Assembly: GCA_049522255.1 (NCBI GenBank)
Contig: JBEKOA010000001.1
Coordinates: 4,216-68,215, forward strand
DNA: 64,000 nucleotides
Direction: 5' to 3'
DNA from: Terracidiphilus sp.
GTDB lineage: Bacteria > Acidobacteriota > Terriglobia > Terriglobales > Acidobacteriaceae
Each line of letters starts with the position of its first letter. The first letter of the stretch is position 1. The notes under the pieces were generated by a model. That model searched no databases and was not told the origin of the DNA. It saw nothing but the letters and a program-made list of their open reading frames with translations. This document shows, in pieces, positions 7,389 to 31,529 of the stretch. A program made the translations under genes and the position numbers.

Positions 7389-7399
7389 CGTGTTTTCCT

Positions 7400-10939: not shown

Positions 10940-10987
10940 TCCTATCGGTGAGCAAGGCCTGAAACAGGAGGGGCAAGAGAAGTCACG

Positions 10988-11399: not shown

Positions 11400-11475
11400 A
11401 GCGCCCAGTGGGCCGTTTTTGCCGGTTATGCCGGTTAGTAAGTACTGTGCCGTCTGTACTTTGCGGTTTGAACTG

Positions 11476-11519
11476 CTCCATGGCATGGAAGGCATCCGTT
11501 CGAATCCTACCAAGTCACC
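11476..11519 (+). pseudogene. Degenerate tRNA-Ala(GGC) 3' fragment (old att core)
   Basis: CTCC-ATGGCAT-GGAAG anticodon arm, GTTCGAATCC T-loop, then ..CCAAGTCACC; no 5' half. Confidence 0.5.
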
Positions 11520-11623
11520 CGCATGCTTGCTCAGATGCGGTTGGAAGGCCGTACTTAGGAAGAAGTCTCGGGCTGAACCTGCACATTCAGCCCACTAGCC
11601 CCACTGCGTTGATTGGTTGGAAA

Positions 11624-11648
11624 ATTTGGTAGCAATTTGGTAGCAAAT
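11624..11648 (+). repeat. Tandem direct repeat, integrase arm-type-like (ATTTGGTAGC x2 + AAAT)
   Basis: 10-mer at 11624 and 11635; related copy ATTTGGTGGCAAAT at 11808-11821. Confidence 0.7.
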
Positions 11649-11723
11649 GGCGCCGATTATGCCAGTTTTGCCGACTCATCCGGTTTATAACTCCTTTGCC
11701 GTCAACAAATCGTCCTACGGTTG

Positions 11724-11773
11724 CCACCTTCACACGGTGGAAGTCGCAGGTTCGAATCCTGCAGCGCCCACCA
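11724..11773 (+). mobile_element. tRNA-Val(CAC) 3' half = att core of an integrative element (not a complete tRNA)
   Basis: CCACC-TTCACAC-GGTGG anticodon arm, AAGTC, GCAGG-TTCGAAT-CCTGC T-arm, AGCGCCC-A-CCA; the upstream 25 nt lack GGGCGCT and a D-arm. Confidence 0.85.
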
Positions 11774-11776
11774 TAA

Positions 11777-11789
11777 AATCAATAACTTA
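11777..11789 (+). promoter_or_regulatory. IHF-binding consensus site next to the att core
   Basis: AATCAATAACTTA matches WATCAANNNNTTR exactly. Confidence 0.6.
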
Positions 11790-12111
11790 CGTCATTTCCG
11801 CAGAGCGATTTGGTGGCAAATGTTGAGAGCCCTTGCACAGCTCAGCCTGCGTCGGCCCCATTGCATTGACGGAACCGACCACCAGCTTCACACTTTCCGG
11901 CAGATTCGTTGGCCGCGGTCTCGGTCTACCTGCACGCCTGCGCCTCGGTCAGCGAGGCCAGAACTTCCATAGGACGCTCCTGGGACTTCTGCAACTTCAT
12001 TCCTCCGGACTCAAGCCTGAAAGCGCTCACGCCCGATCAGCGATCGCTCAGCCGACCGCCAGAGTCCATGGCGGCCTGAAAGCAAAAGCTGTCCGAAGTA
12101 CCGGGACCTCC

Positions 12112-13395
12112 TCAATCTCCCGCTGATTCTGTGTCATATGCAAGAACAGCCTCAGGGGTCTTCCCTTGACGAGTATTGCGATAGCTGAAAACCTGAGCAC
12201 GGCTCAGGGCAGCGGCTGTCCAGGTGAACTTCCAGTGCACGCCAAACTCCAGCAGTAACGCTACGCTGCCGAGCATCAGTCCGGCAAAACACATCAGGCC
12301 GGTCCCATAGCTTCCGAAGATGTCCTTGAGAGCGCCAAGAGCCGACGGAAGAAAGAATCCTCCCAGGCCGCCCGCTGCGCCAACAATGCCGGTGATCAGT
12401 TCAATGTCTGCCGGGAATCGTTGCGGCGCCATCTGAAAGACAGCTCCATTGCCCATACCCAGCATCCCCATGGAGACAAAGAGCATGGGCACCACGACCA
12501 CAATGGGCGGAAGACCACTGACAACCATGAGACAAACTGATATGCAGGCAAAGAGCGCGAGAAGCAATCTGTAACCTCCAATTCTATCGGCAAGCCATCC
12601 TCCGACAGGGCGCAGAAAACTTCCAGAGAGAACAACGATCGTGGTGAAGTCACCTGCCTGCACCTTAGTCAGGTGGTACTGATCGTGAAAGAAGACTGAG
12701 AGAAAGCTTGCCAAGCCCACAAAACCGCCGAATGTGAGGCTATAGAGGAAGCAGAGCCGCCATGTATCGCCCTGCCCAAGCAGTTGTGCGTATTGTCCCA
12801 AGGTTTTTGGTTTTGATTTCGTCGGACTGTTTTTGGCCAGGATCGAAAAGGCTGCTAGCACGAGCAAAACTGGAAGCAGTGCCAGCCCGAAGACAAAATG
12901 CCAACCAAAATGCTGCGCCAGTCGCGGTCCAAAGAAAGTTGCCAGAAGCGTCCCCGAGTTGCCTGCGCCTGCGATGCCCATGGCCAGTCCCTGATGCTCG
13001 GCGGGATACCATCGGCCCGCAAGGGGAAGTGCGACGGCGAAGCTTGCGCCAGCAATGCCCAGCAAGAATCCAATTGCATAGAACTGCCATAGCGCAGTGG
13101 CATAGTGCCAGCCAAGTACGAGGGGAACCAGCGTAAGTGTGAGACCAGTGAGACCAGCACGGCGGCCGCCGATGCGGTCGGCGAGTAACCCAAGAATGGG
13201 CCGGAAAAAAGAACCGCCCAGCAGTGGAATGGCGGTAAGCAATCCCTTTTGAGTTGCGGTCAAATGCATTTGATCAGCAATGAAAGGGGTCATGGGTCCA
13301 AAGAGAACCCACACCATAAAGCTGACGTCGAAGTAGAGAAATGCGGAAACAAGCGTGGGCAAGTGGCCGCTGGAAGCGAAAGATTTCTTGTCCAT
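12112..13395 (-). CDS. narK: NarK/NRT2-family nitrate/nitrite MFS transporter
   Basis: GSFFRPILG, GIAGASFAV, GAGNSG, TFGGFVG, GSFLRPVGGWLADR, GMGNGAVFQ nitrate signatures. Confidence 0.9.
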   Translation of the reverse strand: MDKKSFASSGHLPTLVSAFLYFDVSFMVWVLFGPMTPFIADQMHLTATQKGLLTAIPLLGGSFFRPILGLLADRIGGRRAGLTGLTLTLVPLVLGWHYATALWQFYAIGFLLGIAGASFAVALPLAGRWYPAEHQGLAMGIAGAGNSGTLLATFFGPRLAQHFGWHFVFGLALLPVLLVLAAFSILAKNSPTKSKPKTLGQYAQLLGQGDTWRLCFLYSLTFGGFVGLASFLSVFFHDQYHLTKVQAGDFTTIVVLSGSFLRPVGGWLADRIGGYRLLLALFACISVCLMVVSGLPPIVVVVPMLFVSMGMLGMGNGAVFQMAPQRFPADIELITGIVGAAGGLGGFFLPSALGALKDIFGSYGTGLMCFAGLMLGSVALLLEFGVHWKFTWTAAALSRAQVFSYRNTRQGKTPEAVLAYDTESAGD

Positions 13396-13436
13396 GTGCG
13401 ATCCTCCTGGGGCATTGATTTTGCGAATGAACTAGG

Positions 13437-15650
13437 TTATGAAGTCGGCGCTGCTTTGATGGGAGTGCGTTCGACGCGCACTGCGCATTGCTTGAAGTTG
13501 GGTTCGCGCGAAATGGGATCGAACGCGCTTTGCGTAATCTGATTGGCGTTGCTCTCGACAAAGTGAAAAGGAAGAAAGACCTGTCCTGGAGCAACGATCT
13601 CGGTAATGCGCAACTCAACCTTGCTGACCCGGCCACGCGCAGAGAGCACATCCACGCGATCGTGGGGACGCAAGCCCAGACGCTTCGCGTCCACCGGATT
13701 CATCTCCAGCCATGCGCGCGGAGAAAGGCGCTGCAAAATGTCGATGCCTCCGGTCTTGGTGCGGGTATGCCAGTGTTCTACGGTGCGCCCGGTATTGAGC
13801 ACAAAGGGATATTCTTTGTTGGGTTGCTCTGGAAAAGGAGCCCAGACGGTGGGAATCAGCCTGGCGCGTCCGTCTTCGGTCTGATACTGGCCATCGGTGT
13901 ATAGTCGCCGCGGCACAGTCGGGTCCAAAAAGGCTCCTTGCGGGTAGGGCCACTGGATTCCACCGTTGGACTCGATGGCATCGTAAGTCATGCCGGAGTA
14001 GTCGCAGAGCCTTCCTGCCGAGACGCGGCGCCACTCTTCAAATGCGTCGGTAGGCGTATTCCAGCCGGGGAATAGCTCTTCGCGGCAACCCAATCGTTCG
14101 GCGACAGCAAGAAAGATTTCGAAGTCGCTGCGTGCCTCGGCGGGTGGAGCGACAGCGGCATTGGCTTTGCTGGCGCGGCGTTCTGAGTTGGTGTAGGTCC
14201 CTTCTTTTTCTCCCCAAATGGCAGCAGGCAATACAAGATTGGCTAACTCGGTGGTGGGGGTTGGATGAAATCCATCCTGCACCACAAGAAAGTCCAGATT
14301 ACTCAGCGCATGTTTAAGTACATCGATATTTGGAAAGGAGACCAGGGGATTGGTGCCAATGATCCATAGCGCGCGAATCCTTCCCGCGACAGCAGCTTCG
14401 ATAATGTCAGGATAAGCAAGGCCACGTTGGGTGGGAATGCGCTCGATGGGAATGTTCCATAGGCGAGCCAGTTCTTTGCGGTCCACTTCAGATTCAAATT
14501 TCCGATACCCTGGGAGACCCGAAGCAAAGCCAGCCTCACGAGTGCCCATGGCGTTGCATTGTCCAGTGATGGAGAAAGGCGAAGCCCCGGCGCGCCCGAT
14601 GTTACCAGTAATCAGGGCAAGGTTGTTGATGGCATTAACGGTCTCGGTGCCCTTGGTGCTGTGATTCACCCCCATCGTCCATCCGATGAATGCAGCCTTG
14701 GCATTGCCGTAAAGTAGTGCCGTCCTATGAATCAGTTCCGGCGTGAGACCTGTGATCTTGGCTGCATGCTCCAGCGTGCAGGATTCGAGTGACGCGCGCA
14801 ATTCTTCAAATCCCGTAGTGTAATGCTCGACATATTGCTTGTCATAGAGATCCTCGTTGATGATGATGCGTAGCATGGCATTGATAAGTGCGAGGTCCGA
14901 TCGCGGCTTCAGGGGGAGATATACATCGGCCATCATCGCCGTTTTGGTAACGCGCGGATCGGCCACTATCATCGTTTTGCCGCGATTGCCTTCCAGGCGC
15001 GTACAGAGAATCGGATGATTCTCCGCAACATTGGCTCCGATGAGCAGAATGACATCCGCGGTCTCCAGATCGGCATAGGCGCCGGGCGGTCCATCGCTTC
15101 CAAAAGAACGCTTGTAGCCGGAGACTGCGGTGGACATACAAAGCGTGGTGTTACCGTCATAGTTGCGCGTGCCCAATCCCAGTTGCACCAGCTTGCCCAG
15201 CGCATAGAACTCTTCCGTAAGCAACTGGCCGGTACTGATGACGCCAACCGAATCAGGGCCATATTTGATTTGCGCGGCGCGAAAGCGCTCCACCATAGTT
15301 TCCACCGCTTCGTCCCAACCAACGCGTACTAGCTCATTGTTTTTTCGCAGCAACGGATACCTGGCGCGATCCTTAGCCTCGATTGTGTAGTGCTCTGACA
15401 AGCCTTTTGGACAAAGCTTGCCAAGGTTGACCGGGTGATCGCGATCCCCGCGAACGCTGACAACTTTTCCCTTGCTTACACCTAACTCCATTCCGCAACC
15501 TACAGAGCAGTATCCGCAGGTGCTTTTCACCCACGTTTCCGCATGTTTGCGGGTCGAGGTGAAGCCGAGCACCGGGTCAATCCCGTAACTGTATTTAGCG
15601 GAGAGGTTGTCCAGCCCGCTTTTGCGTAATACCCAGTCCAGCACACTCAT
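13437..15650 (-). CDS. nasA: Cytoplasmic Mo-bisPGD nitrate reductase catalytic subunit (NasA/NarB-type)
   Basis: CGYCSVGC..LCPKG [4Fe-4S]; NTTLCM Mo-Cys; GQCNAMGTRE; EKEGTYTNSERR; ATGA overlap with the upstream gene fixes the start at 15650; no Tat motif. Confidence 0.88.
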   Translation of the reverse strand: MSVLDWVLRKSGLDNLSAKYSYGIDPVLGFTSTRKHAETWVKSTCGYCSVGCGMELGVSKGKVVSVRGDRDHPVNLGKLCPKGLSEHYTIEAKDRARYPLLRKNNELVRVGWDEAVETMVERFRAAQIKYGPDSVGVISTGQLLTEEFYALGKLVQLGLGTRNYDGNTTLCMSTAVSGYKRSFGSDGPPGAYADLETADVILLIGANVAENHPILCTRLEGNRGKTMIVADPRVTKTAMMADVYLPLKPRSDLALINAMLRIIINEDLYDKQYVEHYTTGFEELRASLESCTLEHAAKITGLTPELIHRTALLYGNAKAAFIGWTMGVNHSTKGTETVNAINNLALITGNIGRAGASPFSITGQCNAMGTREAGFASGLPGYRKFESEVDRKELARLWNIPIERIPTQRGLAYPDIIEAAVAGRIRALWIIGTNPLVSFPNIDVLKHALSNLDFLVVQDGFHPTPTTELANLVLPAAIWGEKEGTYTNSERRASKANAAVAPPAEARSDFEIFLAVAERLGCREELFPGWNTPTDAFEEWRRVSAGRLCDYSGMTYDAIESNGGIQWPYPQGAFLDPTVPRRLYTDGQYQTEDGRARLIPTVWAPFPEQPNKEYPFVLNTGRTVEHWHTRTKTGGIDILQRLSPRAWLEMNPVDAKRLGLRPHDRVDVLSARGRVSKVELRITEIVAPGQVFLPFHFVESNANQITQSAFDPISREPNFKQCAVRVERTPIKAAPTS

Positions 15651-17284
15651 GCAGACTCCATGGAGAGATATTCGGTTGCAATGTTGCTGGGAACGACACT
15701 GACAAAGAAGAGATAGCGGCTCACGAATTCGCCGGCAATCAGAAGAAGTGCAACGGGAACAGCCATCCACCGAGTCTGCGCAAAAGGTACAAGCAACAGG
15801 CCCGCGCTGAGCAAAAGGAGGCGCAGCATCAAGAGATTCGAGAGTACGGTGAAAAGCAGGATGAAGACTCCGCGACGCTCATGCGCAGAGGAGCGGGCCA
15901 GCCAAACCATTTTCATGCCGGCGGCAAGAATCGTCGCGATACCGGTAACGATTACCGCCCGTTGCGTAAACGTGGCTGTTCCACTGAGAATGTTGGCGCC
16001 CGCAGAGCCGAGCAGCATGGCGGTCAGAAAGAACTCCACAATAGTGAATGGGGAGTTCCACCCTGGGCGTCCCGGCGCCAAATACAATCGTGCGCTGCAG
16101 CCGACGCCGGCTATGCCAAAGATGACAGTCAATCCACCTAAGACTGTAACTGTATGAGCAGGCAGCATCGCATTGATCTCGCGAAGAAGCAGAACGAGAG
16201 AGGTAGTGAGTTTTTGGAAGACGGCCATGTGTCTAAGATCGAAGCCACCGGGCAAGGTGATCCACAGCGCCGCGGAATACGCAGCCGCGGCGTTGGCAAA
16301 GAGAGTAAACATCAAGACTTCCCGGCTGAGCCATGATCGACGCCACATCTTCAAAGCGCGCACGGCATGAATCGGTCGCCCCAGATGCAGCGTTGAGGCT
16401 CCGAGCGCTACGGTTGCGATCATCAGCGCAACGAGTGCAGCCACGCAGTGCAGGTGAGCACCAAAGATCTGCATCAGCCATATGGAAGAAAATGCGCCTA
16501 CCGAAAGCTGTGTCAGAACGGTCATTACCACCAGCGGCCAATGAGCATGCTCGGGACGAAGACGGTTGAGATCCACTTTGGCGGAATCGCGTGGCATGCG
16601 ATTGGGCAGGGTGATACGCGTTGTGGATAGACTGTCGTCTGCCGAGGGCATCCCTGGCGCGTTTGCGTCGGTGCGATATTGTTCACGCCATTCCGCAGTG
16701 CGCACAATTTCAATGCGAATGGCGCCTTCCGGACAGGCAGAGACGCAGGCTGGATTTTGCCCCTCGGTCAGACGCCCGTAGCACATATCGCATTTACCGA
16801 CGACGCCGCGCTCCGGGTTGTACTGGGGCACGCCGTAAGAACAGTTCCAGGTGCAATATTGGCAACCAATGCAGATATCCGCGTTGTGGCGCACGATTCC
16901 AGTGGGGCCGTCTTTTGAGTAAGCGTCGACCGGGCAGCCCGTCATGCAAGTCGGCTCCAGACAGTGATTGCAGCCGATAGAGAGATAGTTGCGCTGGGTA
17001 TCCGGATAAGTGCCGCCTTCGATTTCGCCGACCCGCCGCCACAGAATGTCGGCAGGATTTCCGTTCTGCTCGTTGCAAGCCACCACGCAACACTTGCAGC
17101 CGATGCACTTGGTCATGTCGAAATGAAAACGATATTGTTCGCCCGGTCCCGGTGGAGGCGGAAGAGGAACATCGACTCCGCTGCCGCACAACTGAACCAA
17201 CCCCTGCCCGGAATTTTGGGCAGAGGTCGTCAGGTTGAAGGCATCGTCGCCGGCCTTGACCCGTTCGAGTAAGGGAAGTTCCAT
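15647..17284 (-). CDS. Fused 4x[4Fe-4S] DmsB/NrfC-type subunit and DmsC/YnfH membrane anchor
   Basis: CIGCKCCVVAC, CNHC..TC..GCP, CIGCQYCTWNC, CDMC..PACVSACP, then ~8 TM with HWPLV.MTVLTQ and S.LHLGRP..A.RA...WRRSWLSRE; GGAG RBS before ATG 17284. Confidence 0.85.
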   Translation of the reverse strand: MELPLLERVKAGDDAFNLTTSAQNSGQGLVQLCGSGVDVPLPPPPGPGEQYRFHFDMTKCIGCKCCVVACNEQNGNPADILWRRVGEIEGGTYPDTQRNYLSIGCNHCLEPTCMTGCPVDAYSKDGPTGIVRHNADICIGCQYCTWNCSYGVPQYNPERGVVGKCDMCYGRLTEGQNPACVSACPEGAIRIEIVRTAEWREQYRTDANAPGMPSADDSLSTTRITLPNRMPRDSAKVDLNRLRPEHAHWPLVVMTVLTQLSVGAFSSIWLMQIFGAHLHCVAALVALMIATVALGASTLHLGRPIHAVRALKMWRRSWLSREVLMFTLFANAAAAYSAALWITLPGGFDLRHMAVFQKLTTSLVLLLREINAMLPAHTVTVLGGLTVIFGIAGVGCSARLYLAPGRPGWNSPFTIVEFFLTAMLLGSAGANILSGTATFTQRAVIVTGIATILAAGMKMVWLARSSAHERRGVFILLFTVLSNLLMLRLLLLSAGLLLVPFAQTRWMAVPVALLLIAGEFVSRYLFFVSVVPSNIATEYLSMESA

Positions 17285-17931
17285 CGATAGCTCCATCGTG
17301 TGCGGCACGCGCAATGTGCGAAGAGGACTGGTGTCAGGGACACGCCGCCCTCGACCGATGACGGTTGCTCTCAGACGTTCGAGCCCCTGTAATTTGTTGG
17401 TGGTTTGGCGATCAGGCCAGGCTCTTCGCGGAGCCAACTGGAAATCACTTCAGCTTGGGGAAGCATCCGGCACACTGGGCCAGACCTTCGCGGTGTGAGC
17501 TCTCTCAAAAGAGTCTCATTCCGCGTGGAGTGATTGCGTTGAGCATAGCGTCAAATAAGAATCAATGCAAGTAGATTCTGGTTTTGAACAATCTGTGCAG
17601 AAATCTCATTCAATATGCGTGGAAAAGCACCTTCCACTCTTGTATTCCCGATTGGATGCGTGTTAAAGCGAAGTCGGAGAGTTTCCCCATTCACCTTGCC
17701 CCGGGCATTCTTCGGGAGGTGATGATTGGGTCATTGCTTCTCTTCAGGCTTCTATCGAGTGTGACCAACGGACTATGTTTTTGCCGATCTTTAATCATGC
17801 GATACTGGAGTTGAAGATTGCTTCGAGTCCGCTGGATTCATGCGGAAATGGAGCGACGCAACTTTGCGCTGCCCGCTCTTCGTATCTTCCATCTGTGTCC
17901 ATTTCTTCTAACCCAGCACACGGAGAGACCC

Positions 17932-19611
17932 ATGCCAGGGGCGAATTTTGAAGGTCTACGGGTTCTGAGTCTGGAAGCACGCCGCGCGAATGAAGTTGCC
18001 AAGCTGATTCACACCTATGGTGGCGAGCCGCTTACGGCGCCGGCGATGCGGGAGATTCCTCTCGAAGAAAATCATCCGGTGATTGAATTCGCTCAGGCCC
18101 TGATGCGGGGAGCCTATGATCTGGTGATCTTCACAACCGGGGTGGGCGTCCGTTCTCTGGTCAAGATCGTCTCCGAGCGTCTGGATCGCGAGCAGTTTCT
18201 TGCTGCCCTGCGCGGCGTGAAGATTGCCGCCCGCGGTCCCAAGTCCTCCAGCGCGTTGCGGGAGTTGCAGATCCCCATCACGGTAGTTTCTCCAGAGCCA
18301 TTCACGTGGCGTGCTCTGATGCCGGCGCTTGAAGAGAAGCTGGGCCCAGAGATGGATGGCATGAACATCGCCGTGCAGGAGTACGGAACATCAAATCCAG
18401 AGTTGCTGACAGCGCTGGCAGAGAAGAGCATTTCAATTACCCGTCTTCTTGTCTATCAATGGGCATTGCCGGAAGACATTCAGCCCTTACGTGAAGCCGT
18501 GCTTGCTCTTGCGCATGGACACGTCGATATCGTGCTCTTCATGAATGCCGGGCAGGTCATGCATCTGTTTCTCATGGCCGAACGCATGGGCTACACAGAG
18601 GCGCTGCATGAAGGACTCCGCTCTACGCTGATCGCTTCGATTGGTCCCAGCACGACCGAAGGAATGTCTGCCTACGGACTGCACCCAGATTTTGAGCCAA
18701 CGCAATCGAAGATGGGCTTCCTGATCAACGAGCTGGCGCAACATGGGCGGTCTCTTTTGAATAAAAAACGCTCCGATGCAGCGTTACATGTTACCAGCAC
18801 TCCACCACCTCCCGTCAGTCCGCTGCTGCAGAGCGGCGCCCAGCCTATTGCAACGGTAGAGCCTGCCATCCCCTCGCCAGTCGATTTTCTGCACGAGATA
18901 GGCAGCCGCATGGCAGCCTCAGACCCGCTGCACACGGTGCTTGATCGCATAGTTGACTTTGCCTGTACAGTCATCAACTGCGATTCTTGTTTTGTCTACG
19001 TGCTGGAAGACAATCAGCTGGTTTTGCGCGCATCCAAAACCCCCCATGCGGATCTGGTGGACCATCTGGGAATCTGGCTTGGCCAAGGCATTACCGGGTG
19101 GGTTGGATGGCATCGCGAGCCGGTTGCGATCTCAGCGAATGCACTGCAGGATCCACGCTTCAAGCGCTTTCCAAATGTGCCGGAAGATGCGTTTGAGGCG
19201 TTTCTTTCCGTTCCAATTCTTTGTCGCGGGAAGCTGGTCGGAGTCATTAATTTGCAGCATCGCAGGCCCTATCAGCATGCAGAAAATGAAGTCCGGCTGC
19301 TGACGACGATCGGCCATCTGGTGGGCGCGGAGTTGGAGCGGGCGCGCCTGGAAACCGAAAACGTCCAACTCTCAGATCGCCTGGAATCGCGCAAACACAT
19401 TGAACGCGCCAAGGGAGTATTGCAGCGCGATTTCGCCCTGGATGAAGAGGCTGCCTACAAGGCCATGCAGCGGGAGAGCCGTCAGCGTCGCAAATCGATG
19501 CGCGAGATTGCCGAGGCAATTATTCTCAACGAAGATCTGCGCAAGAGCCGTTTGGGAGAAGCAAATAGACCGGCAGCGCATGAAGATGGTATAAGGAAAG
19601 CCAAGAATTGA
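17932..19611 (+). CDS. HemD(uroporphyrinogen-III synthase)-like, GAF and ANTAR three-domain fusion
   Basis: N-terminal HemD pattern (IFTTGVGV, ARGPK, VQEYG, SIGPST); GAF (DSCFVYV..LVLRAS..GITGWV..AFLSVPI..GVINL); ANTAR (RKHIERAKGVL..EEAAY..MQRESR); GGAG RBS. Confidence 0.88.
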   Translation: MPGANFEGLRVLSLEARRANEVAKLIHTYGGEPLTAPAMREIPLEENHPVIEFAQALMRGAYDLVIFTTGVGVRSLVKIVSERLDREQFLAALRGVKIAARGPKSSSALRELQIPITVVSPEPFTWRALMPALEEKLGPEMDGMNIAVQEYGTSNPELLTALAEKSISITRLLVYQWALPEDIQPLREAVLALAHGHVDIVLFMNAGQVMHLFLMAERMGYTEALHEGLRSTLIASIGPSTTEGMSAYGLHPDFEPTQSKMGFLINELAQHGRSLLNKKRSDAALHVTSTPPPPVSPLLQSGAQPIATVEPAIPSPVDFLHEIGSRMAASDPLHTVLDRIVDFACTVINCDSCFVYVLEDNQLVLRASKTPHADLVDHLGIWLGQGITGWVGWHREPVAISANALQDPRFKRFPNVPEDAFEAFLSVPILCRGKLVGVINLQHRRPYQHAENEVRLLTTIGHLVGAELERARLETENVQLSDRLESRKHIERAKGVLQRDFALDEEAAYKAMQRESRQRRKSMREIAEAIILNEDLRKSRLGEANRPAAHEDGIRKAKN

Positions 19612-19622
19612 TCGCAACTTGC

Positions 19623-19718
19623 TTGTGATCTCTATCGAGTTGCGCTAGTCTAACCCTAAGAGTGAGACAAGGCTGTCTCCTCGGGTTCTCTCTTCCCCGC
19701 ACCACGCCGTGCCTGGGG
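19623..19718 (+). promoter_or_regulatory. Putative sigma70 promoter and candidate ANTAR-type tandem hairpins in the nirA leader
   Basis: TTGTGA-N17-TAGTCT (19623-19651); GAGAC-AAGGCT-GTCTC (19664-19679); GCAC-CACGCC-GTGC (19699-19712). Confidence 0.5.
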
Positions 19719-19886
19719 CCTTCAGACCACAATCCCTTTACTCCATGCTCCGTGATGAGCCTTGAATTCTCCGCATTGTTTGCGGCATTCATCGGGTCTC
19801 AACGCCGCTTTGCGCACGCGCACACAAGCGCTTTCAACGGGCAGTCCGGTCCTCCTCATGGATGGACTACTGGAAGGAGTGATGGC

Positions 19887-21665
19887 ATGGAAACGCTGGA
19901 TACCCTCAATTCCCAGGATTTCACGGCAGTACAGAAGGAGTATCTTCTCGGCATCTTTTCGACTGCCACGCATCATGGCTTGCGTCCTTTCGCGGGCCAC
20001 ACCGCGACCGGGCTGCTGACCAACGATTCAACTCTTGGCTCGATCAATCTGGCGGAACCGCAAGAGGAGACCTACCACGGAACGCCAGTCTCCGATCTCT
20101 GCCGCGAAGAGCGATGGAAGTATGAGCAGAATCCTCTTGATATCTGGGACAAGCTGCTGGCTCATGCAGATGAAAATCGAACACCGGCAGCGGATGATCT
20201 TTTCCGCTTCAAATTTCACGGGCTATTTTACGTAGCTCCCGCGCAGGACTCCTTCATGCTCAGGCTGCGCGTCCCAGGCGGCATTCTTACCGCTCACCAA
20301 ATGCGCGGCCTGGCGGCGATGGCCTCCGATTGGGGATCGGGCCGCGTGGACATTACGACCCGTGCCAACCTGCAGATTCGCGAATTCCAGCCGAAAGAAA
20401 TTGTTCGCGTGCTCAACAAGCTGCAATCGCTTGGGCTTACCTCGCGCGGTTCAGGCGCAGACAATATTCGTAACATCACGGCTTCGCCGATCACCGGACT
20501 CGATCCCACTGAACTCTGCGATGTGGCGCCGCTGGCCGATGCGCTTCACCATTACATTCTGAATAGCCGCGATCTGTATGGGTTGCCGCGCAAATTCAAC
20601 GTAGCCTTCGACAATGGAGGCGCCATCAGCGTCGTTGCCGATACCAACGATATTGGCTTTGTTGCTGTCCGCGTTGGTGAAGGGCGCAGCCTTCCCACGG
20701 GCGTTTATTTTCGAGTATTGTTGTGCGGCATTACTGGGCACAAACAGTTCGCTACCGATTGCGGCTTGCTGTTACGCGCCGATCAGACCGTGGCTGTTGC
20801 CGCTGCCATGATACGTGTCTTCAGCGAGAACGGCGACCGAACGGATCGCAAAAAAGCGCGCCTGAAATACCTGGTGGATCGCTGGGGCGTCGACAAGTTT
20901 CTGGATGAGACTGAAATGCGTTTGTCCTTCCCGCTGATCCGCGTTCCGATCAATGAGTGCGAGCCGCGCCTGCCGATTGATCGCGCCGGCCACATCGGTG
21001 TTCACGCGCAACGTCAAGACGATCTGCACTATATTGGGATCTCCGTGCCGGTTGGCCGTCTTCCTGCCGCGCAGATGCTGGCCCTGGCTGACATAGCCAG
21101 CAGTTACGGCAGCGGGGAGTTGCGACTCACGGTCTGGCAGAACCTGTTGATCCCAAACATTCCAACCGCTCATCTGGATGCGACGTTGGCTGCGCTTCAA
21201 GCTGTCGGTCTTGATTGCACGGCAGGGACTGTTCTGCGAGGCACTGTTGCCTGCACAGGAAATCGCGGCTGCAAGTATGCATCGACCGACACCAAGACAC
21301 ACGCGGTTGAATTGGCCAGTCTGCTTGATGCACGATTCAAGATTGAACAGCCGGTCAATCTTCATGTGACCGGTTGTCCCCACTCCTGCGCACAACATTA
21401 CATCGGCGATATCGGCCTGCTCGGCATGAAGGTTGGCGGCGCCGAAGGCTATCAAGTGGTAATCGGTGGAGGCTCGGATCTGGACAAAGGCCTGGCGCGC
21501 GAGCTAATCCCTGCTATCGCCTATAGTGATTTGCCCCCCATGATGGAACGGCTCTTTGCCGCCTATATCGAACAGCGGAAGAGAGATGAGTCCTTCCTGG
21601 ATTTCAGCCGTAGACACAGCACTGCGGAGTTGCAATCGTTTTGCGCGGCAAAGGAGCGGAGATAG
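19887..21665 (+). CDS. nirA: Siroheme-[4Fe-4S] nitrite reductase, NirA family
   Basis: FKFHGLF, MLRLRVPGG, ITTRANLQIR, GADNIRN, LPRKFN, ACTG..GC, TGCPHSCAQH; GAAGGAG RBS. Confidence 0.88.
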   Translation: METLDTLNSQDFTAVQKEYLLGIFSTATHHGLRPFAGHTATGLLTNDSTLGSINLAEPQEETYHGTPVSDLCREERWKYEQNPLDIWDKLLAHADENRTPAADDLFRFKFHGLFYVAPAQDSFMLRLRVPGGILTAHQMRGLAAMASDWGSGRVDITTRANLQIREFQPKEIVRVLNKLQSLGLTSRGSGADNIRNITASPITGLDPTELCDVAPLADALHHYILNSRDLYGLPRKFNVAFDNGGAISVVADTNDIGFVAVRVGEGRSLPTGVYFRVLLCGITGHKQFATDCGLLLRADQTVAVAAAMIRVFSENGDRTDRKKARLKYLVDRWGVDKFLDETEMRLSFPLIRVPINECEPRLPIDRAGHIGVHAQRQDDLHYIGISVPVGRLPAAQMLALADIASSYGSGELRLTVWQNLLIPNIPTAHLDATLAALQAVGLDCTAGTVLRGTVACTGNRGCKYASTDTKTHAVELASLLDARFKIEQPVNLHVTGCPHSCAQHYIGDIGLLGMKVGGAEGYQVVIGGGSDLDKGLARELIPAIAYSDLPPMMERLFAAYIEQRKRDESFLDFSRRHSTAELQSFCAAKERR

Positions 21666-21667
21666 CT

Positions 21668-23440
21668 ATGTCCACCAACCCTCCCTATATTCCCGATAAT
21701 GCTCCCTTCACACCAGAACAGCGAGCGTGGCTCAACGGCTTTCTTGCCGGACTGTTTGCAGGCGATGGTCAGCAGGCTGCCGCTGCGGAGTCCAAACCAT
21801 CGCATCGCATTGCGATTCTTTATGCCTCGCAATCCGGCACTGCCGAAGGGCTGGCGCGCAGGCTGGCCAAGGAACTTAAGGCTCAGGGCCATCAGCCAGT
21901 GGTCTCAACATTGGTCGGCTATTCGCCGGCCGCGCTGGCGTCGGAGAAATATGCACTGATCTTTGCCAGCACTTATGGCGATGGTGAAGCTCCCGATGGC
22001 GTTCAGCCATTTTTTGAAGAACTCTGTCTTGAGCACTTTCCTCGCTTCGAGGGATTGTCTTACTCCGTCTTCGCGCTCGGAGATCGCCACTACGAAAACT
22101 TCTGCAAGTTTGGCAACGATCTTGACAGCAAACTGGCTGCATTGGGTGCCAATCGCCTGGCCAATCGTGTCGATTGCGATGTGGATGTCGATGAGCCGTT
22201 AGTGCAATGGAAAGCGGAAGTTCTTCCGCGGCTTAATGAATCGGCGCCAGCACTCAAGCTTTCAAGGGCCGCTTCAACCGCCGTGGCAGTGGCGGAAAGG
22301 CCAGCGCCAAATGCCTCGTTTACGCGCGATAATCCGGTCTTTGCTCCGCTGATTCACAAAAAAGATCTTACGCACAAGACCTCCAGCAAGACGACACTTC
22401 ATCTGGCATTCTCCATTGAGGGAACGGGTATTCAGTATGAATCCGGCGACGCCTGCGGTGTTCTGCCCGCAAACGATTGCAACCTGGTCGCCGAGATCCT
22501 GCAAGCTCTACGCTTCAACGGCAACGAGCGGGTTCAATGCGGTAAGGCAGAAACCATTCCTCTTCACAATGCGTTAACTCACCATCTGCAAATCACCCGC
22601 CTGAATCGCAAGATGGTCACTGAATATGCAAACCTGGGCAAGTGCGCGCTGCTCTCTTCGCTGCTGGAACCCAGGCAGCAGCCGGAACTGGACAGATACC
22701 TCTACGGCCGAGGACTGATTGACCTGTTGATCGAGTATCCTGGCGTGGTGCAGAGCCCGGAAGAACTTGTGGCAATGCTGCCCAAACTTACGCCGCGTCT
22801 CTATTCCATATCCTCCAGCCCCATTGCTCATGCCGGGCAAATTCATACCACAGTGGCCGTGGTGCGCTACAGCGCGCACAACCGTGAGCGCGGAGGAGTG
22901 TGCTCGACGCTCTTTGCCGATCGCGCTTCCGTCTCTGACCGTTTGCCTCTTTACATTCAACCGAACAAGCGGTTCAAATTGCCAAATGATTCCGACGCCC
23001 CCATGATCATGATTGGACCCGGCACGGGCATTGCGCCGTTCCGTGGCTTTCTGCACGAGCGCCGCGCACTGGGGGCCAAGGGAAAAAACTGGCTCTTCTT
23101 TGGTGAGCGCAGCGCAACAACCGATTACCTTTATCGGGACGAGTTGGAGGCCATGCAGGCCGATGGGCATCTGACCCGCTTGGATACTGCTTTCTCGCGC
23201 GATCAGGAAGATAAGATCTACGTGCAGGATCGTATGCTGGAGCAGGCTCCGTTGTTTTGGAGTTGGTTGCAGGATGGGGCTAGTGTTTACGTCTGCGGTG
23301 ACGCGTCACGAATGGCGAAGGATGTGCATGGAGCCTTGCAAACCATTGTTCAAACGCAAGGGGGAATGCCGGCGATTGCTGCGGAGGAATATGTGGAAAC
23401 CCTGAAAGAGCAGCATCGCTACCATCGGGATGTGTACTGA
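21668..23440 (+). CDS. CysJ-like diflavin (FMN/FAD/NADPH) reductase
   Basis: YASQSGTAE, STYGDGEAP, ALGD..Y..FC, PRLYSISSS, MIGPGTGIAPFRGF, YVQD, YVCGDA, YHRDVY. Confidence 0.9.
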   Translation: MSTNPPYIPDNAPFTPEQRAWLNGFLAGLFAGDGQQAAAAESKPSHRIAILYASQSGTAEGLARRLAKELKAQGHQPVVSTLVGYSPAALASEKYALIFASTYGDGEAPDGVQPFFEELCLEHFPRFEGLSYSVFALGDRHYENFCKFGNDLDSKLAALGANRLANRVDCDVDVDEPLVQWKAEVLPRLNESAPALKLSRAASTAVAVAERPAPNASFTRDNPVFAPLIHKKDLTHKTSSKTTLHLAFSIEGTGIQYESGDACGVLPANDCNLVAEILQALRFNGNERVQCGKAETIPLHNALTHHLQITRLNRKMVTEYANLGKCALLSSLLEPRQQPELDRYLYGRGLIDLLIEYPGVVQSPEELVAMLPKLTPRLYSISSSPIAHAGQIHTTVAVVRYSAHNRERGGVCSTLFADRASVSDRLPLYIQPNKRFKLPNDSDAPMIMIGPGTGIAPFRGFLHERRALGAKGKNWLFFGERSATTDYLYRDELEAMQADGHLTRLDTAFSRDQEDKIYVQDRMLEQAPLFWSWLQDGASVYVCGDASRMAKDVHGALQTIVQTQGGMPAIAAEEYVETLKEQHRYHRDVY

Positions 23441-23500
23441 GCCGCAATGGCATCTTTCTTGTATCTGTCATTCCTATTAAAATCAAAACCGGGATGCAGG

Positions 23501-24004
23501 ATGAGAGTCTGCAAGCTATACATTTCGCCAGGGCATAATTTCTTTGGCCACCACGAACAGCCGCCCGGAGAGTATCCGCTGATCGAGTGTGCGGAGCTCC
23601 GTTGTATGGCCGGTCGCGGAGTTGAAGGAGACCGCTTCTTCGACTACAAGGACAACTACAAGGGACAGATCACTTTCTTCTCTTCCGAGGTCTTCGAGGA
23701 ACTCTGTAATCTTCTCGGCGTGCACGACAAGTCTCCGGGGGCAACCCGTCGCAACGTCATCACCGCTGGAGTGGATCTGAATTCCCTGATCGAAAGAGAG
23801 TTTGACGTACAAGGCGTGCGTTTTTCAGGTGTAGCTGAGTGCAGCCCCTGTTATTGGATGGACAAAGCCATCGCACCCGGCGCCGAGGAATTCCTGAAAG
23901 GCCGGGGTGGGTTGCGCGCGCGGATTCTAACGGATGGGGTCCTCGTAGTCGAAGATGAAATTCTCTATCGCCATTCTGCAGATTCTCAGTGTCCCCTACT
24001 TTAA
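23501..24004 (+). CDS. MOSC-domain molybdoprotein (YiiM/mARC-like)
   Basis: GRGVEGDRF, QITFF, TRRNVI..GVDLN, CSPC, GRGGLRARIL..G. Confidence 0.85.
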   Translation: MRVCKLYISPGHNFFGHHEQPPGEYPLIECAELRCMAGRGVEGDRFFDYKDNYKGQITFFSSEVFEELCNLLGVHDKSPGATRRNVITAGVDLNSLIEREFDVQGVRFSGVAECSPCYWMDKAIAPGAEEFLKGRGGLRARILTDGVLVVEDEILYRHSADSQCPLL

Positions 24005-24380: not shown

Positions 24381-25616
24381 ATGTCGTTTCGTTCTGTGTT
24401 TGTGGCCGTCGTCATTGCGTTTGCTCTCATACTTTCCGCCTTCCTTGTCAATCGAGCCCGCCCCAAGGTAGAGACCGACCAGCCTACCGCCGACTTTGTT
24501 CGCGCGTCCGGCAAGTGTGCCGAGTGCCATGCCCGGCTTCAATACTCCGTCGTTCACGAATACGAGATGTCCGTACATGCGAAGAAAGGCGTGAATTGCC
24601 TGGACTGTCACGAACCCGGCCCCGGCCAGCAGAAGGTGGATCACCACGGCTTCGTGATCAGTACTCACTTGACGGCAGGCAACTGCCGCTCCTGTCACGA
24701 AGGCATCTATCAGGAGTTTCTGCGCAGCCGTCACGCCGCGCCCAGTTGGGCGGCCGTGCATGGCGAAGCGGGATTGAGTGCGGAGCAGGTTGCCTTCAGC
24801 GAGCAGTTCCAGCCCGGGGGAACGAAGCGTCCGCCCAACCCACTTACGGTTCCTGAGGGGCATCCAGCAATCACTTCGGGTTGCGAACAGTGCCACGCCA
24901 TTGGCAAGCCGAACGACGACGGCACGATTGGCAGTTGCACCGAATGCCACTCGCGCCACAGCAACTCTGTTGCTCTCGCCCGCCTGCCCACCACCTGCGG
25001 CCAGTGCCATATGGGGCCCGACCACTCCCAGGTTGAGATCTATAACGAGTCAAAGCACGGCGTGATGTTCGCCGCCCAAAGCAACCTTCTTCGGCTCGAC
25101 GCCGATCCTCGCACGTTGACGACTCGCGACATGTTCGTGCCAACCTGCGCGACCTGCCATATGAGCGGCATCAACGGCCTGAAGGTTACTCACAATCCGT
25201 CCGATCGACTCGGCTGGTATCTCGCCGACGCTGTCACGACCCATCGTCCAAACTACCTTCAGGCCCAGATCAATATGAAGCAGGTCTGCACCCAATGCCA
25301 CACCCCGGCGCGTATCGACCGAGTCTACGACCAGGGTGAAGAGGTCATCAAGGGCACAAACGCCAAGGTTCTTGCCGCCAAGGACATCATGGATGGATTG
25401 CACAAAGACGGAACCCTGACGGGCCCTCCGTTTAGCCACCCGATTGACTTTACCTACTTCAATCTGTGGCACTACGACGGCCGCACCAGCAAGCACGGAG
25501 CCTTCATGGGAGGCGCCGACTTCGTCCAATGGCACGGCAATTACGAAATGCTGTCGAAGACCGTCGAACTTCAGCACGACGCCGACGAACTACGGAGAGA
25601 GCATGCTCACAAGTAA
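24381..25616 (+). CDS. Membrane-anchored octaheme c-type cytochrome, hydroxylamine-oxidoreductase (HAO) family, reductive type
   Basis: 8 CxxCH (CAECH, CLDCH, CRSCH, CEQCH, CTECH, CGQCH, CATCH, CTQCH); HMGPDHSQ.EIY.ESKHG and DGR..HGAFMGGADFVQWHG HAO signatures; N-terminal TM. Confidence 0.85.
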   Translation: MSFRSVFVAVVIAFALILSAFLVNRARPKVETDQPTADFVRASGKCAECHARLQYSVVHEYEMSVHAKKGVNCLDCHEPGPGQQKVDHHGFVISTHLTAGNCRSCHEGIYQEFLRSRHAAPSWAAVHGEAGLSAEQVAFSEQFQPGGTKRPPNPLTVPEGHPAITSGCEQCHAIGKPNDDGTIGSCTECHSRHSNSVALARLPTTCGQCHMGPDHSQVEIYNESKHGVMFAAQSNLLRLDADPRTLTTRDMFVPTCATCHMSGINGLKVTHNPSDRLGWYLADAVTTHRPNYLQAQINMKQVCTQCHTPARIDRVYDQGEEVIKGTNAKVLAAKDIMDGLHKDGTLTGPPFSHPIDFTYFNLWHYDGRTSKHGAFMGGADFVQWHGNYEMLSKTVELQHDADELRREHAHK

Positions 25617-26547
25617 ACTGCTCCTTCGCATTCAGAAGATCATTCTCGACCCGCGCCTGCTGTGGGTGCACGATCTCACGCTTTGGGTCGAGCTGTTTGT
25701 CACCGTGAATCTGGCGATTCTTGCCGCGGACATTTACCTCGCACATTCGGTGAATCATTTTCAAAAGGCGGCGGAGTATATCCCGCTCTACTTTTCAATG
25801 GGCTCGCCGGTAGTGCTCGCGGCCGTGATCGCCCTGCGCTGGATAGGTCGATTTGAAGCTCCTTGGCGCGACGTAGGCTACCTGGTCGGTGGTCTTTCAG
25901 TGCTGGTCGGGTTAGGCGGAGTGCTTTACCACTTGGAGAGCCGGTTCTTTCTGGATCGCACGTTGAAGAGCCTCACCTACGCAGCGCCTTTTGCCGCGCC
26001 GCTCGCGTATACCGGCCTCGGCTTTCTCCTCTTGATGAATCGCATGGTGGCTGCGCGAAGTGCCGAGTGGGCACGTTGGGTGATCCTCCTGGCGCTGGGC
26101 GGCTTCTTCGGGAACTTCGTTCTGTCGTTGACCGACCACGCATCCAATGGCTTCTTTGCAAGAACCGAATGGATTCCCGTTGTTTCTTCGGCATTTGCTA
26201 CCGGATTCCTGATCGTCCTCCTCATGGCGGTGGTGACGCGCCGATTTCTCGACGCTTGCCTTGTGGTAATGTTCGCGCAGGCCTTCGTCGGTGTTTTGGG
26301 ATTCTGGTTTCATCTGCGCGCGAATCTGTTCGAGCCCGGCAGCAGCGTCTTCGACAAACTCGTCAATGGCGCTCCCCCAATGGCTCCGCTGCTATTTCCG
26401 AATCTCGTTGGACTGGCTCTGATCGGACTGTGGGCTTTGATTCCTCATTTACCGGAAGCGCCATCAAGCCGTTCCTGGCTGGGTGCAACTTACGCGTGGG
26501 TGCATCCCGGAGTGGAAACGGGTGCGTCAGATGGGCACGTTCGCTGA
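25603..26547 (+). CDS. Integral membrane protein with internal duplication and 4 conserved His; probable HAO partner
   Basis: Overlaps the hao stop; two halves each with H..N.F...E.IP, VG..G..(Y/F)HL and AP..AP. Confidence 0.75.
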   Translation: MLTSKLLLRIQKIILDPRLLWVHDLTLWVELFVTVNLAILAADIYLAHSVNHFQKAAEYIPLYFSMGSPVVLAAVIALRWIGRFEAPWRDVGYLVGGLSVLVGLGGVLYHLESRFFLDRTLKSLTYAAPFAAPLAYTGLGFLLLMNRMVAARSAEWARWVILLALGGFFGNFVLSLTDHASNGFFARTEWIPVVSSAFATGFLIVLLMAVVTRRFLDACLVVMFAQAFVGVLGFWFHLRANLFEPGSSVFDKLVNGAPPMAPLLFPNLVGLALIGLWALIPHLPEAPSSRSWLGATYAWVHPGVETGASDGHVR

Positions 26548-27254: not shown

Positions 27255-27974
27255 ATGACCCCAAACCCACAGACCGTTCGCGAAATCGCCCTGGAACAGC
27301 CATCTTCAATAAGAGTTTTTGAGAGATTTGGAATCGACTATTGCTGCGGGGGCCGCAAGCCTCTCAGCGAAGCGTGTATGGCCGGAAATCTTGAGGTAGA
27401 CATTGTGATCGCCGCGTTGGAAGCGGCTGCAAAGGCGCCGGATTCAGAAGTTGAAAACTGGTCCGGTAAGTCGTTGGAGAGCCTGAGCGCGCATATCGTC
27501 ACCACGCACCATGCCTACGTAAAGCGAGAACTGCCTAGACTCGCCGTGCTCGCCGAGAAGGTTGTGAATCGTCATGGCGCAACAAAGACGGAATTGCCGG
27601 GAATCGCTGGAACACTAGCGCGGCTCGACGGGGAACTCACGCAGCATCTGGCGAAAGAAGAAGCCGTCCTGTTTCCCTACATTGCGGATCTTGAACGGGC
27701 CGTTTCGAATCATGCCGCGAAGCCACGCAGTTGCTTCGGGACGGTTGCCAACCCGATCGCGATGATGACGCAGGAACACGATGCTGCCGGAACGCTCCTC
27801 GCTGAAATTCGTCGTCTCAGCCACAATTTCACCACGCCTGAGGATGCCTGCCCTACCTTTCATGCCTTCTACGGCGGGCTAAAGGAATTTGAACAGGACC
27901 TGCACCAGCACATTCATTTGGAGAACAACATACTGTTTCCGCGTGCAATAGAGATGGAGAAAGCCGCATCCTAA
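27255..27974 (+). CDS. ric: Iron-sulfur cluster repair di-iron protein (RIC/YtfE/ScdA)
   Basis: GIDYCCGG, HH.YVKRELP, HLAKEEAVLFP, EHD..G, HIHLENNILFP. Confidence 0.93.
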   Translation: MTPNPQTVREIALEQPSSIRVFERFGIDYCCGGRKPLSEACMAGNLEVDIVIAALEAAAKAPDSEVENWSGKSLESLSAHIVTTHHAYVKRELPRLAVLAEKVVNRHGATKTELPGIAGTLARLDGELTQHLAKEEAVLFPYIADLERAVSNHAAKPRSCFGTVANPIAMMTQEHDAAGTLLAEIRRLSHNFTTPEDACPTFHAFYGGLKEFEQDLHQHIHLENNILFPRAIEMEKAAS

Positions 27975-30419: not shown

Positions 30420-31529
30420 TCACATGCCGGGATGGGACAATTCGTTCGCGTGTGGCACGAGACGCAAATAGACTGAGCGCGGGATATTTGTCTGCCAGTG
30501 ATTTGTGGCTCGGGCAAATAGCATCAGTCCGAAAAAGATATACGCGAGAACGGCGGTGACGGCCAGAGGTCCAAGTGTGCGGCGAAACCATCGATGCGAG
30601 GCTGCCGCGCCGCGTCTCGGTGCAAGTGCGAATTGAAGCGCATCCTGCCGTGGGCAAACTGCCACGCATGCCAGGCACGCGTTGCACTCTGCCGACCGGA
30701 TCTGTGTCAGGCGGTCGACCGGCAGGCTTGCCGGACAAGCTCGCGCGCACTTTCCGCAATCGAGGCAGTGCTCTGCGTCTCGGCGAATCTTGACAGGACT
30801 AAGAAGCGAAACGAGCCCCATCAGCGCGCCGTAAGGACAGAGGTAGCGGCACCAGAAGTTCTTGAGCAGCAGGGAGCCGAAAACCAGAATGGCAAGGACG
30901 ATGGCGGCGGTCTGCCCCATATCGCGAAAGAAGTTCAACATCTTCACGTCTGCCACCAGGCCATAAGGAGTGTTCATGAAGCTCTCCAATGCCTCGCCGG
31001 ACATAGCGCCAATGACGAGAACGAAGAATCCGAGCAACAGGTATTTCAGCCCGCGTAAAGGGCTGTCGGCCCAACGGGGAAGTCGCAGATTGCGCCCGAA
31101 GATCCTTCGCCCTATCTTCCACAGATACTCTGAGAGTGTTCCCACTGGGCAAAGCCAGGAGCAGAAGGCCTTCTTCAGCAAAAGACTCATCAGCAGAAAG
31201 GCAATCAACAAAAACATGGCCGCAGGGTGAATGGACGGCACGCGCCCGGTAAATAGAAGGTACTTGAGATTCATCAGACCGGCGATGGGCAGCCAGCCCT
31301 CGGCCCCGGGAGGGCGAGGCACGTAAAATCCCTCACCTCCGTGTTCGAAATAGCGGACCCACAGAATGAACTGAACCCCAAGCCAGCCGTTCAAAGCCAC
31401 AAACAGCAACTGCACAAGGTGCCTGATCCGTTGGGAGTTGTCCGCCACGGGCCGGCGAATTAGCGGCTTCTTCTCGTTGAGGCGAGAAACTCCTTTTGCT
31501 GACTGGGTCTCCATGGCCGATTCTTCCAT
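30420..31529 (-). CDS. YccM/NapH-like membrane polyferredoxin
   Basis: CSWLCP, CRYLCP, CLDCGKCARACP, CNACLACVAVCP; TM helices. Confidence 0.85.
   Translation of the reverse strand: MEESAMETQSAKGVSRLNEKKPLIRRPVADNSQRIRHLVQLLFVALNGWLGVQFILWVRYFEHGGEGFYVPRPPGAEGWLPIAGLMNLKYLLFTGRVPSIHPAAMFLLIAFLLMSLLLKKAFCSWLCPVGTLSEYLWKIGRRIFGRNLRLPRWADSPLRGLKYLLLGFFVLVIGAMSGEALESFMNTPYGLVADVKMLNFFRDMGQTAAIVLAILVFGSLLLKNFWCRYLCPYGALMGLVSLLSPVKIRRDAEHCLDCGKCARACPASLPVDRLTQIRSAECNACLACVAVCPRQDALQFALAPRRGAAASHRWFRRTLGPLAVTAVLAYIFFGLMLFARATNHWQTNIPRSVYLRLVPHANELSHPGM

Follow-up and report, generated by a model that had tools for sequence, protein, structure and literature searches.

An unannotated eight-helix membrane protein encoded in a fixed pair with Hao-like octaheme cytochromes: a candidate link to the quinone pool

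How do Hao-like octaheme cytochromes c outside the nitrifiers obtain their electrons? The question is raised by a stretch of 64,000 nucleotides (nt) of Terracidiphilus sp. DNA (Acidobacteriota; assembly GCA_049522255.1, contig JBEKOA010000001.1, positions 4,216 to 68,215 of the forward strand), hereafter the window, where a hao-like gene is directly followed by a gene for an integral membrane protein. Such cytochromes are increasingly invoked in nitrite ammonification and in the turnover of nitric oxide (NO) and hydroxylamine in soils, peat, sediments and sponges. The electron donor of the Hao-like nitrite reductases outside Campylobacterota is treated as open, with several speculative electron routes to Hao considered for Caldithrix (PMC5317091), and in Deferribacter an unexplained small membrane protein is encoded next to Hao (PMC6896113). 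The latter is like the protein studied here in adjoining a reductive Hao, the likeness noted being one of gene position. In this work, we provide evidence that the membrane protein of the window belongs to a widespread, wholly unannotated family which forms a fixed two-gene unit with one Hao-like clade; the family is new, while the role that we propose for it is a known one. We consider the chances about even that this protein is the membrane subunit linking the quinone pool to an anchored Hao-like enzyme, with its working site on a conserved periplasmic face.

The hao gene (24381-25616, + strand) encodes 411 amino acids (aa) from the ATG at 24381, with eight CxxCH motifs and an N-terminal hydrophobic helix. 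The mechanically called open reading frame (ORF) begins at a TTG at 24222, and the shorter start was preferred because homologues elsewhere are called at 405-443 aa. The membrane-protein gene (25603-26547, +) encodes 314 aa with eight predicted transmembrane (TM) helices and four conserved His residues. The hao stop codon TAA (25614-25616) lies 11 nt beyond the ATG of the membrane-protein gene at 25603, giving a 14-nt overlap of the two ORFs, and a Shine-Dalgarno-like GGAGAG, as read from the sequence (25594-25599, +), is situated within the 3′ end of hao, 3-4 nt before that ATG. Such a layout would be consistent with translational coupling of the two genes.

The upstream product bears both hallmarks of the HAO family, eight CxxCH motifs and likeness to solved HAO structures. 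It matches the Pfam model Multi-haem_cyto (4.6e-24); its best match in the PDB is the Ignicoccus octaheme cytochrome 4qo5 (E 3.7e-29), and the N. europaea HAO (1fgj/4fas) is found at about 1e-20, the E values for HAO, KsHOX and HDH ranging from 1e-14 to 1e-20. A comparison of its C-terminus with the HAOs of the PDB, aimed at the cross-link tyrosine, returned only a spurious match to adiponectin. In 109 of 116 partner Haos the pattern G..M.G.D followed by F is present where the HaoA of Ruegeria pomeroyi has GGFTY, a residue correspondence that is our own reading of an alignment which is not confident.

To find out how constant the gene pair is, we collected loci via relatives of the membrane protein, 81 of them close and 84 more distant. 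Among the close loci, 72 carried an intact ORF with eight CxxCH motifs abutting the membrane-protein gene, six had a Hao gene split by frameshifts, and three offered too little upstream sequence; for the more distant loci the corresponding numbers were 43, none and 41. A Hao homologue was therefore found directly upstream in 121 out of 121 informative loci (115 intact, six split), spread over five or more phyla, with 44 loci being too short to judge; in the 41 short distant loci, the truncated upstream ORFs hold just as many CxxCH motifs as their length permits. The pairing of this family with Hao is thus effectively obligate. Overlaps of 4 or 14 nt are seen in the gene calls of Telmatobacter, of a Sandaracinaceae metagenome-assembled genome (MAG), of two Poribacteria MAGs and of two further contigs; we cite overlaps solely from gene calls, a start-codon survey across the loci being too crude for this purpose. 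No second multiheme ORF was detected within about 6 kb in 78 of the 80 genome loci, which leaves the pair without another candidate link to the quinone pool nearby. In the six loci with a split Hao (L041, L070, L072, L073, L074 and L079), mostly from uncultured MAGs, the membrane-protein gene is readable over most of its length; the frameshifts may be sequencing errors or may mark real pseudogenes. The complete genome of Telmatobacter bradus (NZ_CP184532.1) has two such hao and membrane-protein pairs, near 0.22 Mb and 3.71 Mb.

Relatives of the membrane protein are numerous. A word-indexed search returned at least 3923 matches, an exhaustive search of 1.84 billion cluster representatives yielded 655 clusters at 50% identity, and at least 416 stretches encode a relative in a species-level set of about 186,000 genomes. 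The members come from Acidobacteriota (Terracidiphilus, Telmatobacter), Planctomycetota (Gemmataceae, Urbifossiella), Verrucomicrobiota, Myxococcota (Sandaracinaceae) and Poribacteria, and all the names given to them in the sources are “hypothetical protein”, including that in the NCBI annotation of the complete T. bradus genome. An 83%-identical copy was found on a 1.9-kb contig in a Bradyrhizobium sp. MAG, probably by a binning error, as the other close relatives all belong to Acidobacteriaceae.

Known families gave no foothold. The protein and 23 diverse relatives matched no family model in Pfam or NCBIfam when searched to E ≤ 5, apart from a few weak Pfam matches below threshold that are taken up further on, a PDB sequence search with the protein returned nothing at E ≤ 10, and Foldseek comparison of its AlphaFold2 (AF2) model with the PDB gave nothing significant (best E 0.42, template-modelling score at most 0.33). 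The top Foldseek match, CydDC (E 0.42, score 0.20), was taken as noise. The plasmid search with the protein gave no match, the eight longer members examined for domain fusions displayed a single, uninformative GNAT read-through, and the family is undescribed in the full-text literature that we searched. The initial annotation of the window, made from the letters alone, had spoken of an uncharacterised family whose gene start overlaps the hao stop and had proposed co-occurrence with Hao-like genes as a check; all this agrees with what we observed. Its statement that no HAO partner of known type is encoded here stands in part: hao is the sole multiheme ORF, no other CxxCH-rich ORF being present in the 64 kb of the window, but a NapH/MauN-family gene (30420-31529, −) and a fusion of an iron-sulphur (FeS) protein with a DmsC-like anchor (15647-17437, −) are both encoded in it.

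What kind of protein is it? We found it to be a tandem duplicate of a four-helix unit. Its local self-alignment scored 67 versus 32.2 ± 4.8 for shuffled sequences (z = 7.3), and the profile-profile alignment of the N-terminal and C-terminal halves of the family by hhalign had a probability of 98.3% (E 2.6e-14, 100 columns), which puts the internal duplication well beyond chance. Repeat 1 (25705-26028, +; residues 35-142, TM1-TM4) contains the motifs AHSVNHF (47-53), EYIP (58-61), VGLGGVLYHL (102-111) and APFAAP (128-133); repeat 2 (26110-26415, +; residues 170-271, TM5-TM8) contains DHASNGF (178-184), EWIP (189-192), VGVLGFWFHL (229-238) and APPMAP (257-262). The hhalign alignment pairs H48 with H179, H110 with H237, N36 with N171, D43 with D178, N51 with N182 and E58 with E189. 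The two homologous halves noticed in the initial annotation, with all the motifs it quoted and with two His per half in matching TM positions, are thereby borne out. The AF2 model (mean predicted local distance difference test, pLDDT, 89.6; predicted template-modelling score 0.88) has eight helices, four per repeat (25-49, 56-82, 85-118, 128-148, 154-181, 187-208, 213-242 and 261-282), in agreement with hydropathy.

The conservation of individual residues was followed in an alignment of 378 family members (about 83 effective sequences). The four His, the conservation of which had been put forward as a check on the initial annotation, are retained in 96-99% of the members: H48 in 364, H110 in 375, H179 in 372 and H237 in 368. 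The shortfall is mainly due to gaps, which account for ten of the members lacking His at position 48. H52, which lies within AHSVNHF, is not conserved, with His in just 153 of the 378. Near-invariant residues in the first half are N36, D43, A47, N51, F53, E58, P61, G96, G103, G106, Y126, P129, A132 and P133, and in the second half N171, D178, N182, E189, W190, G230, G233, P258 and P262. The protein has no CxxCH motif and one Cys only, a non-conserved one, and no Met or Cys is conserved in the family.

According to hydropathy and the AF2 helices, H48, H110, H179 and H237 share one end of TM1, TM3, TM5 and TM7, at the edge of the hydrophobic core. The codons of H48 (25744-25746, +) and H179 (26137-26139, +) stand at the ends of TM1 and TM5, that of H179 right after the codon of the invariant D178; those of H110 (25930-25932, +) and H237 (26311-26313, +) are near the outer ends of TM3 and TM7, each preceded by two Gly codons, for G103 and G106 on the same helix face in TM3 and for G230 and G233 in TM7. 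The loops on the His side are far better conserved (1.8-3.1 bits per position) than those on the opposite side (1.0-1.45 bits) and the termini (0.3-0.5 bits). The His-side loops are net acidic and the opposite ones net basic, a pattern that under the positive-inside rule makes a periplasmic position of the His face probable, the charge bias being of moderate strength. On the same face, segment 111-130 is strongly conserved and yet has the lowest model confidence in the membrane domain (pLDDT 66), which would suit a surface that becomes ordered only against a partner.

Taken together, these data suggest the following scheme. The membrane protein and the Hao-like cytochrome encoded upstream would constitute a two-gene, two-subunit enzyme. 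The His face would point to the periplasm, dock the heme domain of Hao and form a site of (mena)quinol oxidation, from which electrons would pass to the nearest c-heme of Hao, either directly or by way of b-hemes, one or two in number, for which the His pairs near the periplasmic surface would be the ligands. The protons would be released on the same side, making the step electroneutral. Hao would then reduce nitrite, NO or hydroxylamine in a detoxifying or ammonifying role; this reductive direction, with electrons from quinol, is suggested by the NO-stress neighbourhood of the genes (see below) and by the closeness of the cytochrome to the Ignicoccus-type octaheme protein. The membrane protein would in this way do, with an unrelated fold, the job that NapC/NrfH-type tetrahaem cytochromes perform for other Hao-like and NrfA enzymes. 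The stronger claim, to which we grant a little less than an even chance, is that the protein represents a class of membrane quinol dehydrogenase not recognised before, in which a four-helix unit is duplicated and a four-His site at the periplasmic surface would hold two side-by-side b-hemes or a non-heme metal; with the anchored Hao it would make a self-contained nitrite/NO/hydroxylamine reductase.

Several points weigh against this scheme. Quinol oxidation by the membrane protein is deduced from its context, and no likeness to known quinol-oxidising proteins was detected in sequence or fold by Pfam/NCBIfam, Foldseek or hhalign. The co-occurrence demonstrates that the two proteins work together and does not tell the task of the membrane protein. 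The periplasmic placing of the His face depends solely on the moderate charge bias described above. Finally, the NapH-family protein of the window, which comprises a membrane part and 4Fe-4S clusters, could serve as an alternative or additional donor in Acidobacteriaceae. Even so, a new kind of quinol-linked Hao partner, which was the general idea of the initial annotation, is the best available explanation of the data.

As to the cofactor, the initial annotation had gone further and suggested a di-heme-b quinol oxidase. This would be a special case of the scheme above: H48 and H110 would hold one b-heme and H179 and H237 the second, quinol would be oxidised and Hao fed through the hemes. The arrangement of the four near-invariant His, two per repeat and on the alternate helices TM1/TM3 and TM5/TM7, speaks for it, as does the lack of Cys motifs, which leaves room for neither a c-type heme nor an FeS cluster. 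Moreover, Gly-rich helix faces lie below H110 and H237, where by helix periodicity the invariant glycines one and two turns down (G106 and G103, G233 and G230) could accommodate a flat macrocycle. Four conserved TM His in four-helix bundles are also typical of the di-heme cytochromes b NarI, FdnI and cytochrome b561/CybB; in those, however, the His pairs lie at two depths, whereas here all four are at one helix end, on the membrane-water boundary, which makes a transmembrane heme pair unlikely and would place two hemes side by side at one surface. Such side-by-side surface hemes are not known from any di-heme cytochrome b of membranes. In addition, there was no match to a cytochrome b in Pfam, nor any Foldseek match to NarI, FdnI, cytochrome b561 or similar folds, and Asp, Asn and Glu residues like those conserved beside the His are met more usually at sites for metal, protons or quinol. 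The classical di-heme-b form, with hemes at two levels of the membrane, is accordingly unlikely, and the di-heme-b cytochrome as a whole appears to us a possible but doubtful version of the quinol-linked subunit.

These neighbouring Asp, Asn and Glu residues would be no less in place at a quinol/proton site lacking a cofactor, or at a non-heme metal site. In the latter case, D43/D178, E58/E189 and the four His might bind Fe, Cu or Zn at the periplasmic face. The protein would then be a metal-dependent subunit with a catalytic or a sensing task, for example towards NO or hydroxylamine, or else would transport metal for Hao. A pseudo-symmetric set of four His, two Asp, two Glu and Asn at one membrane surface speaks for this. 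The D-x4-H and D-H motifs seem reminiscent of membrane metal sites like the ones in PmoC and in NiCoT transporters. The Pfam model Ceramidase, a family of membrane metal-hydrolases, was matched by three of 24 members; these matches, though, are weak (best E 0.0066), below threshold and inconsistent. Furthermore, there is no conserved Met or Cys among the candidate ligands, Foldseek returned no transporter or metalloenzyme, and the obligate pairing with one cytochrome across phyla would be hard to explain for a metal transporter. We therefore hold the metal-site alternative to be improbable.

Does the membrane protein merely anchor Hao? The partner cytochrome has its own N-terminal hydrophobic helix, MSFRSVFVAVVIAFALILSAFLV in the window, and a strongly hydrophobic TM helix is present at this place in all 116 complete partner Haos (116/116). 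Its very sequence is conserved across phyla, being SVFVAVVIAFALILSAFLI in Acidobacteria and SIFISVFLGTALIVAALIF in Poribacteria. Since Hao owns a membrane helix, an eight-helix protein is not needed merely as an anchor. The conservation of the helix suggests a helix-helix contact in the membrane, and it probably packs against the eight-helix protein there.

An anchored Hao would also be compatible with a protein taking no part in electron transfer, namely a scaffold, assembly or maturation factor that, for example, holds the Hao trimer at the membrane or handles heme or apoprotein during maturation. The strict 1:1 pairing with overlapping stop and start codons fits a chaperone or scaffold equally, the protein has no recognisable redox cofactor motif, and the HaoB of nitrifiers is likewise co-transcribed with HaoA and without an assigned role (PMC3772326). 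On the other hand, the invariant polar set of His, Asp, Asn and Glu would be unusual in a passive scaffold, and neither Pfam nor the fold comparison indicated any likeness to the heme-handling proteins CcmC, CcmF and CcsA. Also, relatives of the Hao that lack the membrane protein carry a quinol dehydrogenase gene, rather than a chaperone gene, in its place, as described next. We thus judge a purely structural or maturation role unlikely, if less so than a metal site.

These relatives were found by a tblastn search of plasmids with the Hao of the window, which matched three records, those of Ruegeria pomeroyi, Desulfosarcina ovata and Desulfobaculum bizertense. The Hao-like proteins of the two latter plasmids have 28-30% identity and cleavable-looking signal peptides, and their genes are preceded by a gene for a tetrahaem protein of the NapC/NirT family. 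The Desulfosarcina gene lies near those for NorR, qNor and Crp/Fnr, an NO-stress setting as in Acidobacteriaceae. The setting being similar, the occurrence of NapC/NirT with one Hao lineage and of the new family with the other argues that the two are functional analogues, in accord with non-orthologous replacement. This is the strongest argument for their being functional analogues, albeit an indirect one. The Desulfosarcina plasmid, Do28_1, is a mobilizable replicon of 136 kb, which encodes within 3233-9158 of our locus L167 the NapC/NirT protein, the Hao-like cytochrome, a ferredoxin, NorR and the large subunit of a nitric-oxide reductase.

The quinol-linked subunit was further compared with the known partners of such enzymes. 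The tetrahaem quinol dehydrogenases NapC/NirT/NrfH (NrfH of NrfHA, cM552/CycB of nitrifiers) have a role like the one proposed here, and their genes also adjoin that of a periplasmic multihaem N-oxide enzyme; they are, however, built of four CxxCH motifs and a single N-terminal TM helix, whereas our protein has no CxxCH and eight TM helices, and the sequences are unrelated. Closer in architecture are NrfD, PsrC and DmsC, which likewise consist of two units of four TM helices each, lack an obvious cofactor motif and carry conserved polar residues near the outer face. Nevertheless, none of 24 members matched the NrfD or DmsC models of Pfam at E ≤ 5, Foldseek gave no NrfD-like match, and hhalign of the family against the DmsC-like anchor of the window gave a probability of 0.4%. 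A four-cluster FeS subunit of the NrfC/PsrB/DmsB type was encoded next to the pair neither in the window nor at any of the five distant loci with gene calls. Kinship with NrfD/DmsC was therefore rejected at the sensitivity of Pfam, Foldseek and hhalign.

In being encoded immediately after a HAO-family gene and co-expressed with it, our protein is like HaoB (TIGR04392), which is found in nitrifiers, methanotrophs and R. pomeroyi and has been described as a co-transcribed, HaoA-associated protein of unknown role (PMC3772326). Could our protein be an orthologue of HaoB (orf2)? HaoB consists of one N-terminal helix and a soluble domain of roughly 300 aa, in contrast to the eight TM helices and no soluble domain seen here. 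Downstream of the HAO gene of R. pomeroyi stands a gene that the NCBI annotation pipeline PGAP names haoB, and the product of this haoB, used as a positive control, scored 380 bits on TIGR04392 (cut-off 200 bits), while our protein and its 23 diverse relatives scored nothing. The hhalign comparison of the family profile with the R. pomeroyi HaoB gave a probability of 0.09%, and PGAP itself labels the T. bradus homologue “hypothetical protein”. HaoB orthology is thus ruled out for practical purposes, the chance that we leave for it being negligible.

The neighbourhood of the pair was surveyed in flanks of 4-8 kb at 66 Acidobacteriaceae loci and 15 distant ones. In Acidobacteriaceae, the pair is usually located in an NO-stress island: RIC/YtfE is encoded beside it in 43 of the 66 loci, a Crp/Fnr regulator in 40, a 442-aa protein in 37, qNorB in 36, a hemerythrin in 31 and the NapH-like protein, within 6 kb, in 19. 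At the distant loci Hao was retained in 15/15 and every other neighbour seen in the window, NapH included, in 0/15. The 442-aa protein has no Pfam domain; in T. bradus its gene comes immediately after the pair and is read from the other strand (10984-12312, −, of locus L001).

If the quinol-dehydrogenase role is true, the family would be a new one in respiratory or detoxifying electron transfer and would provide a third independent wiring of HAO-family enzymes to the quinone pool, beside c554/cM552 and NapC/NrfH, one with a wide distribution among the Acidobacteriota and Planctomycetota of soil and peat. It is a concrete candidate for the electron supply of Hao, a single gene always coupled operon-wise to one Hao clade, so that such Hao modules would become recognisable as complete units in metagenomes, and a heme or metal site of an unusual kind, located at the surface, may come to light in it. 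Should the protein not be a quinol dehydrogenase, a widespread enzyme of the nitrogen cycle nonetheless has in it an obligate subunit that lacks any annotation.

Are the two genes expressed together in nature? Contigs from four peat or wetland metatranscriptomes map on hao and the membrane-protein gene with at least 95% identity, and one of them (25468-25677) crosses the stop/start junction. This is in line with co-transcription of the two genes, although the contigs may derive from close strains and carry-over of DNA is possible. The nearby RIC/YtfE gene (27255-27974, +) was covered in three 2025 runs at a contig depth of about 30-97, compared with about 2-13 for hao and the membrane-protein gene, which suggests ongoing nitrosative stress in the peat samples.

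Upstream of the pair, the window carries genes resembling those for nitrate assimilation. Since such neighbours (NirA, a CysJ-like protein, a MOSC protein, a molybdenum enzyme and a major facilitator superfamily (MFS) transporter) were encountered in only 1-4 of the 66 Acidobacteriaceae loci, we regard this setting as particular to the genome of the window and did not use it for interpretation. On the minus strand, 12112-17437 encodes the MFS transporter, a molybdopterin oxidoreductase (13437-15770) and the 4Fe-4S dicluster/DmsC-like anchor fusion mentioned above, the latter two ORFs overlapping by about 120 nt as listed. These genes diverge from the nirA operon and give the impression of a nitrate reductase with a membrane anchor, set in surroundings that otherwise look assimilatory. 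The plus strand encodes, at 19662-24004, NirA and downstream of it a CysJ-like flavoprotein and a small protein with a MOSC domain, a trio met near the Hao pair in only 1-3 of the 66 loci; its products may be an NADPH-driven nitrite reductase and a reductase of N-hydroxylated compounds. Directly upstream of nirA, a single ORF (17818-19611, +) is predicted to combine uroporphyrinogen-III synthase (HemD) with GAF and ANTAR domains, an unusual joining of an enzyme domain of the siroheme pathway with an RNA-binding antiterminator of the NasT/NasR kind.

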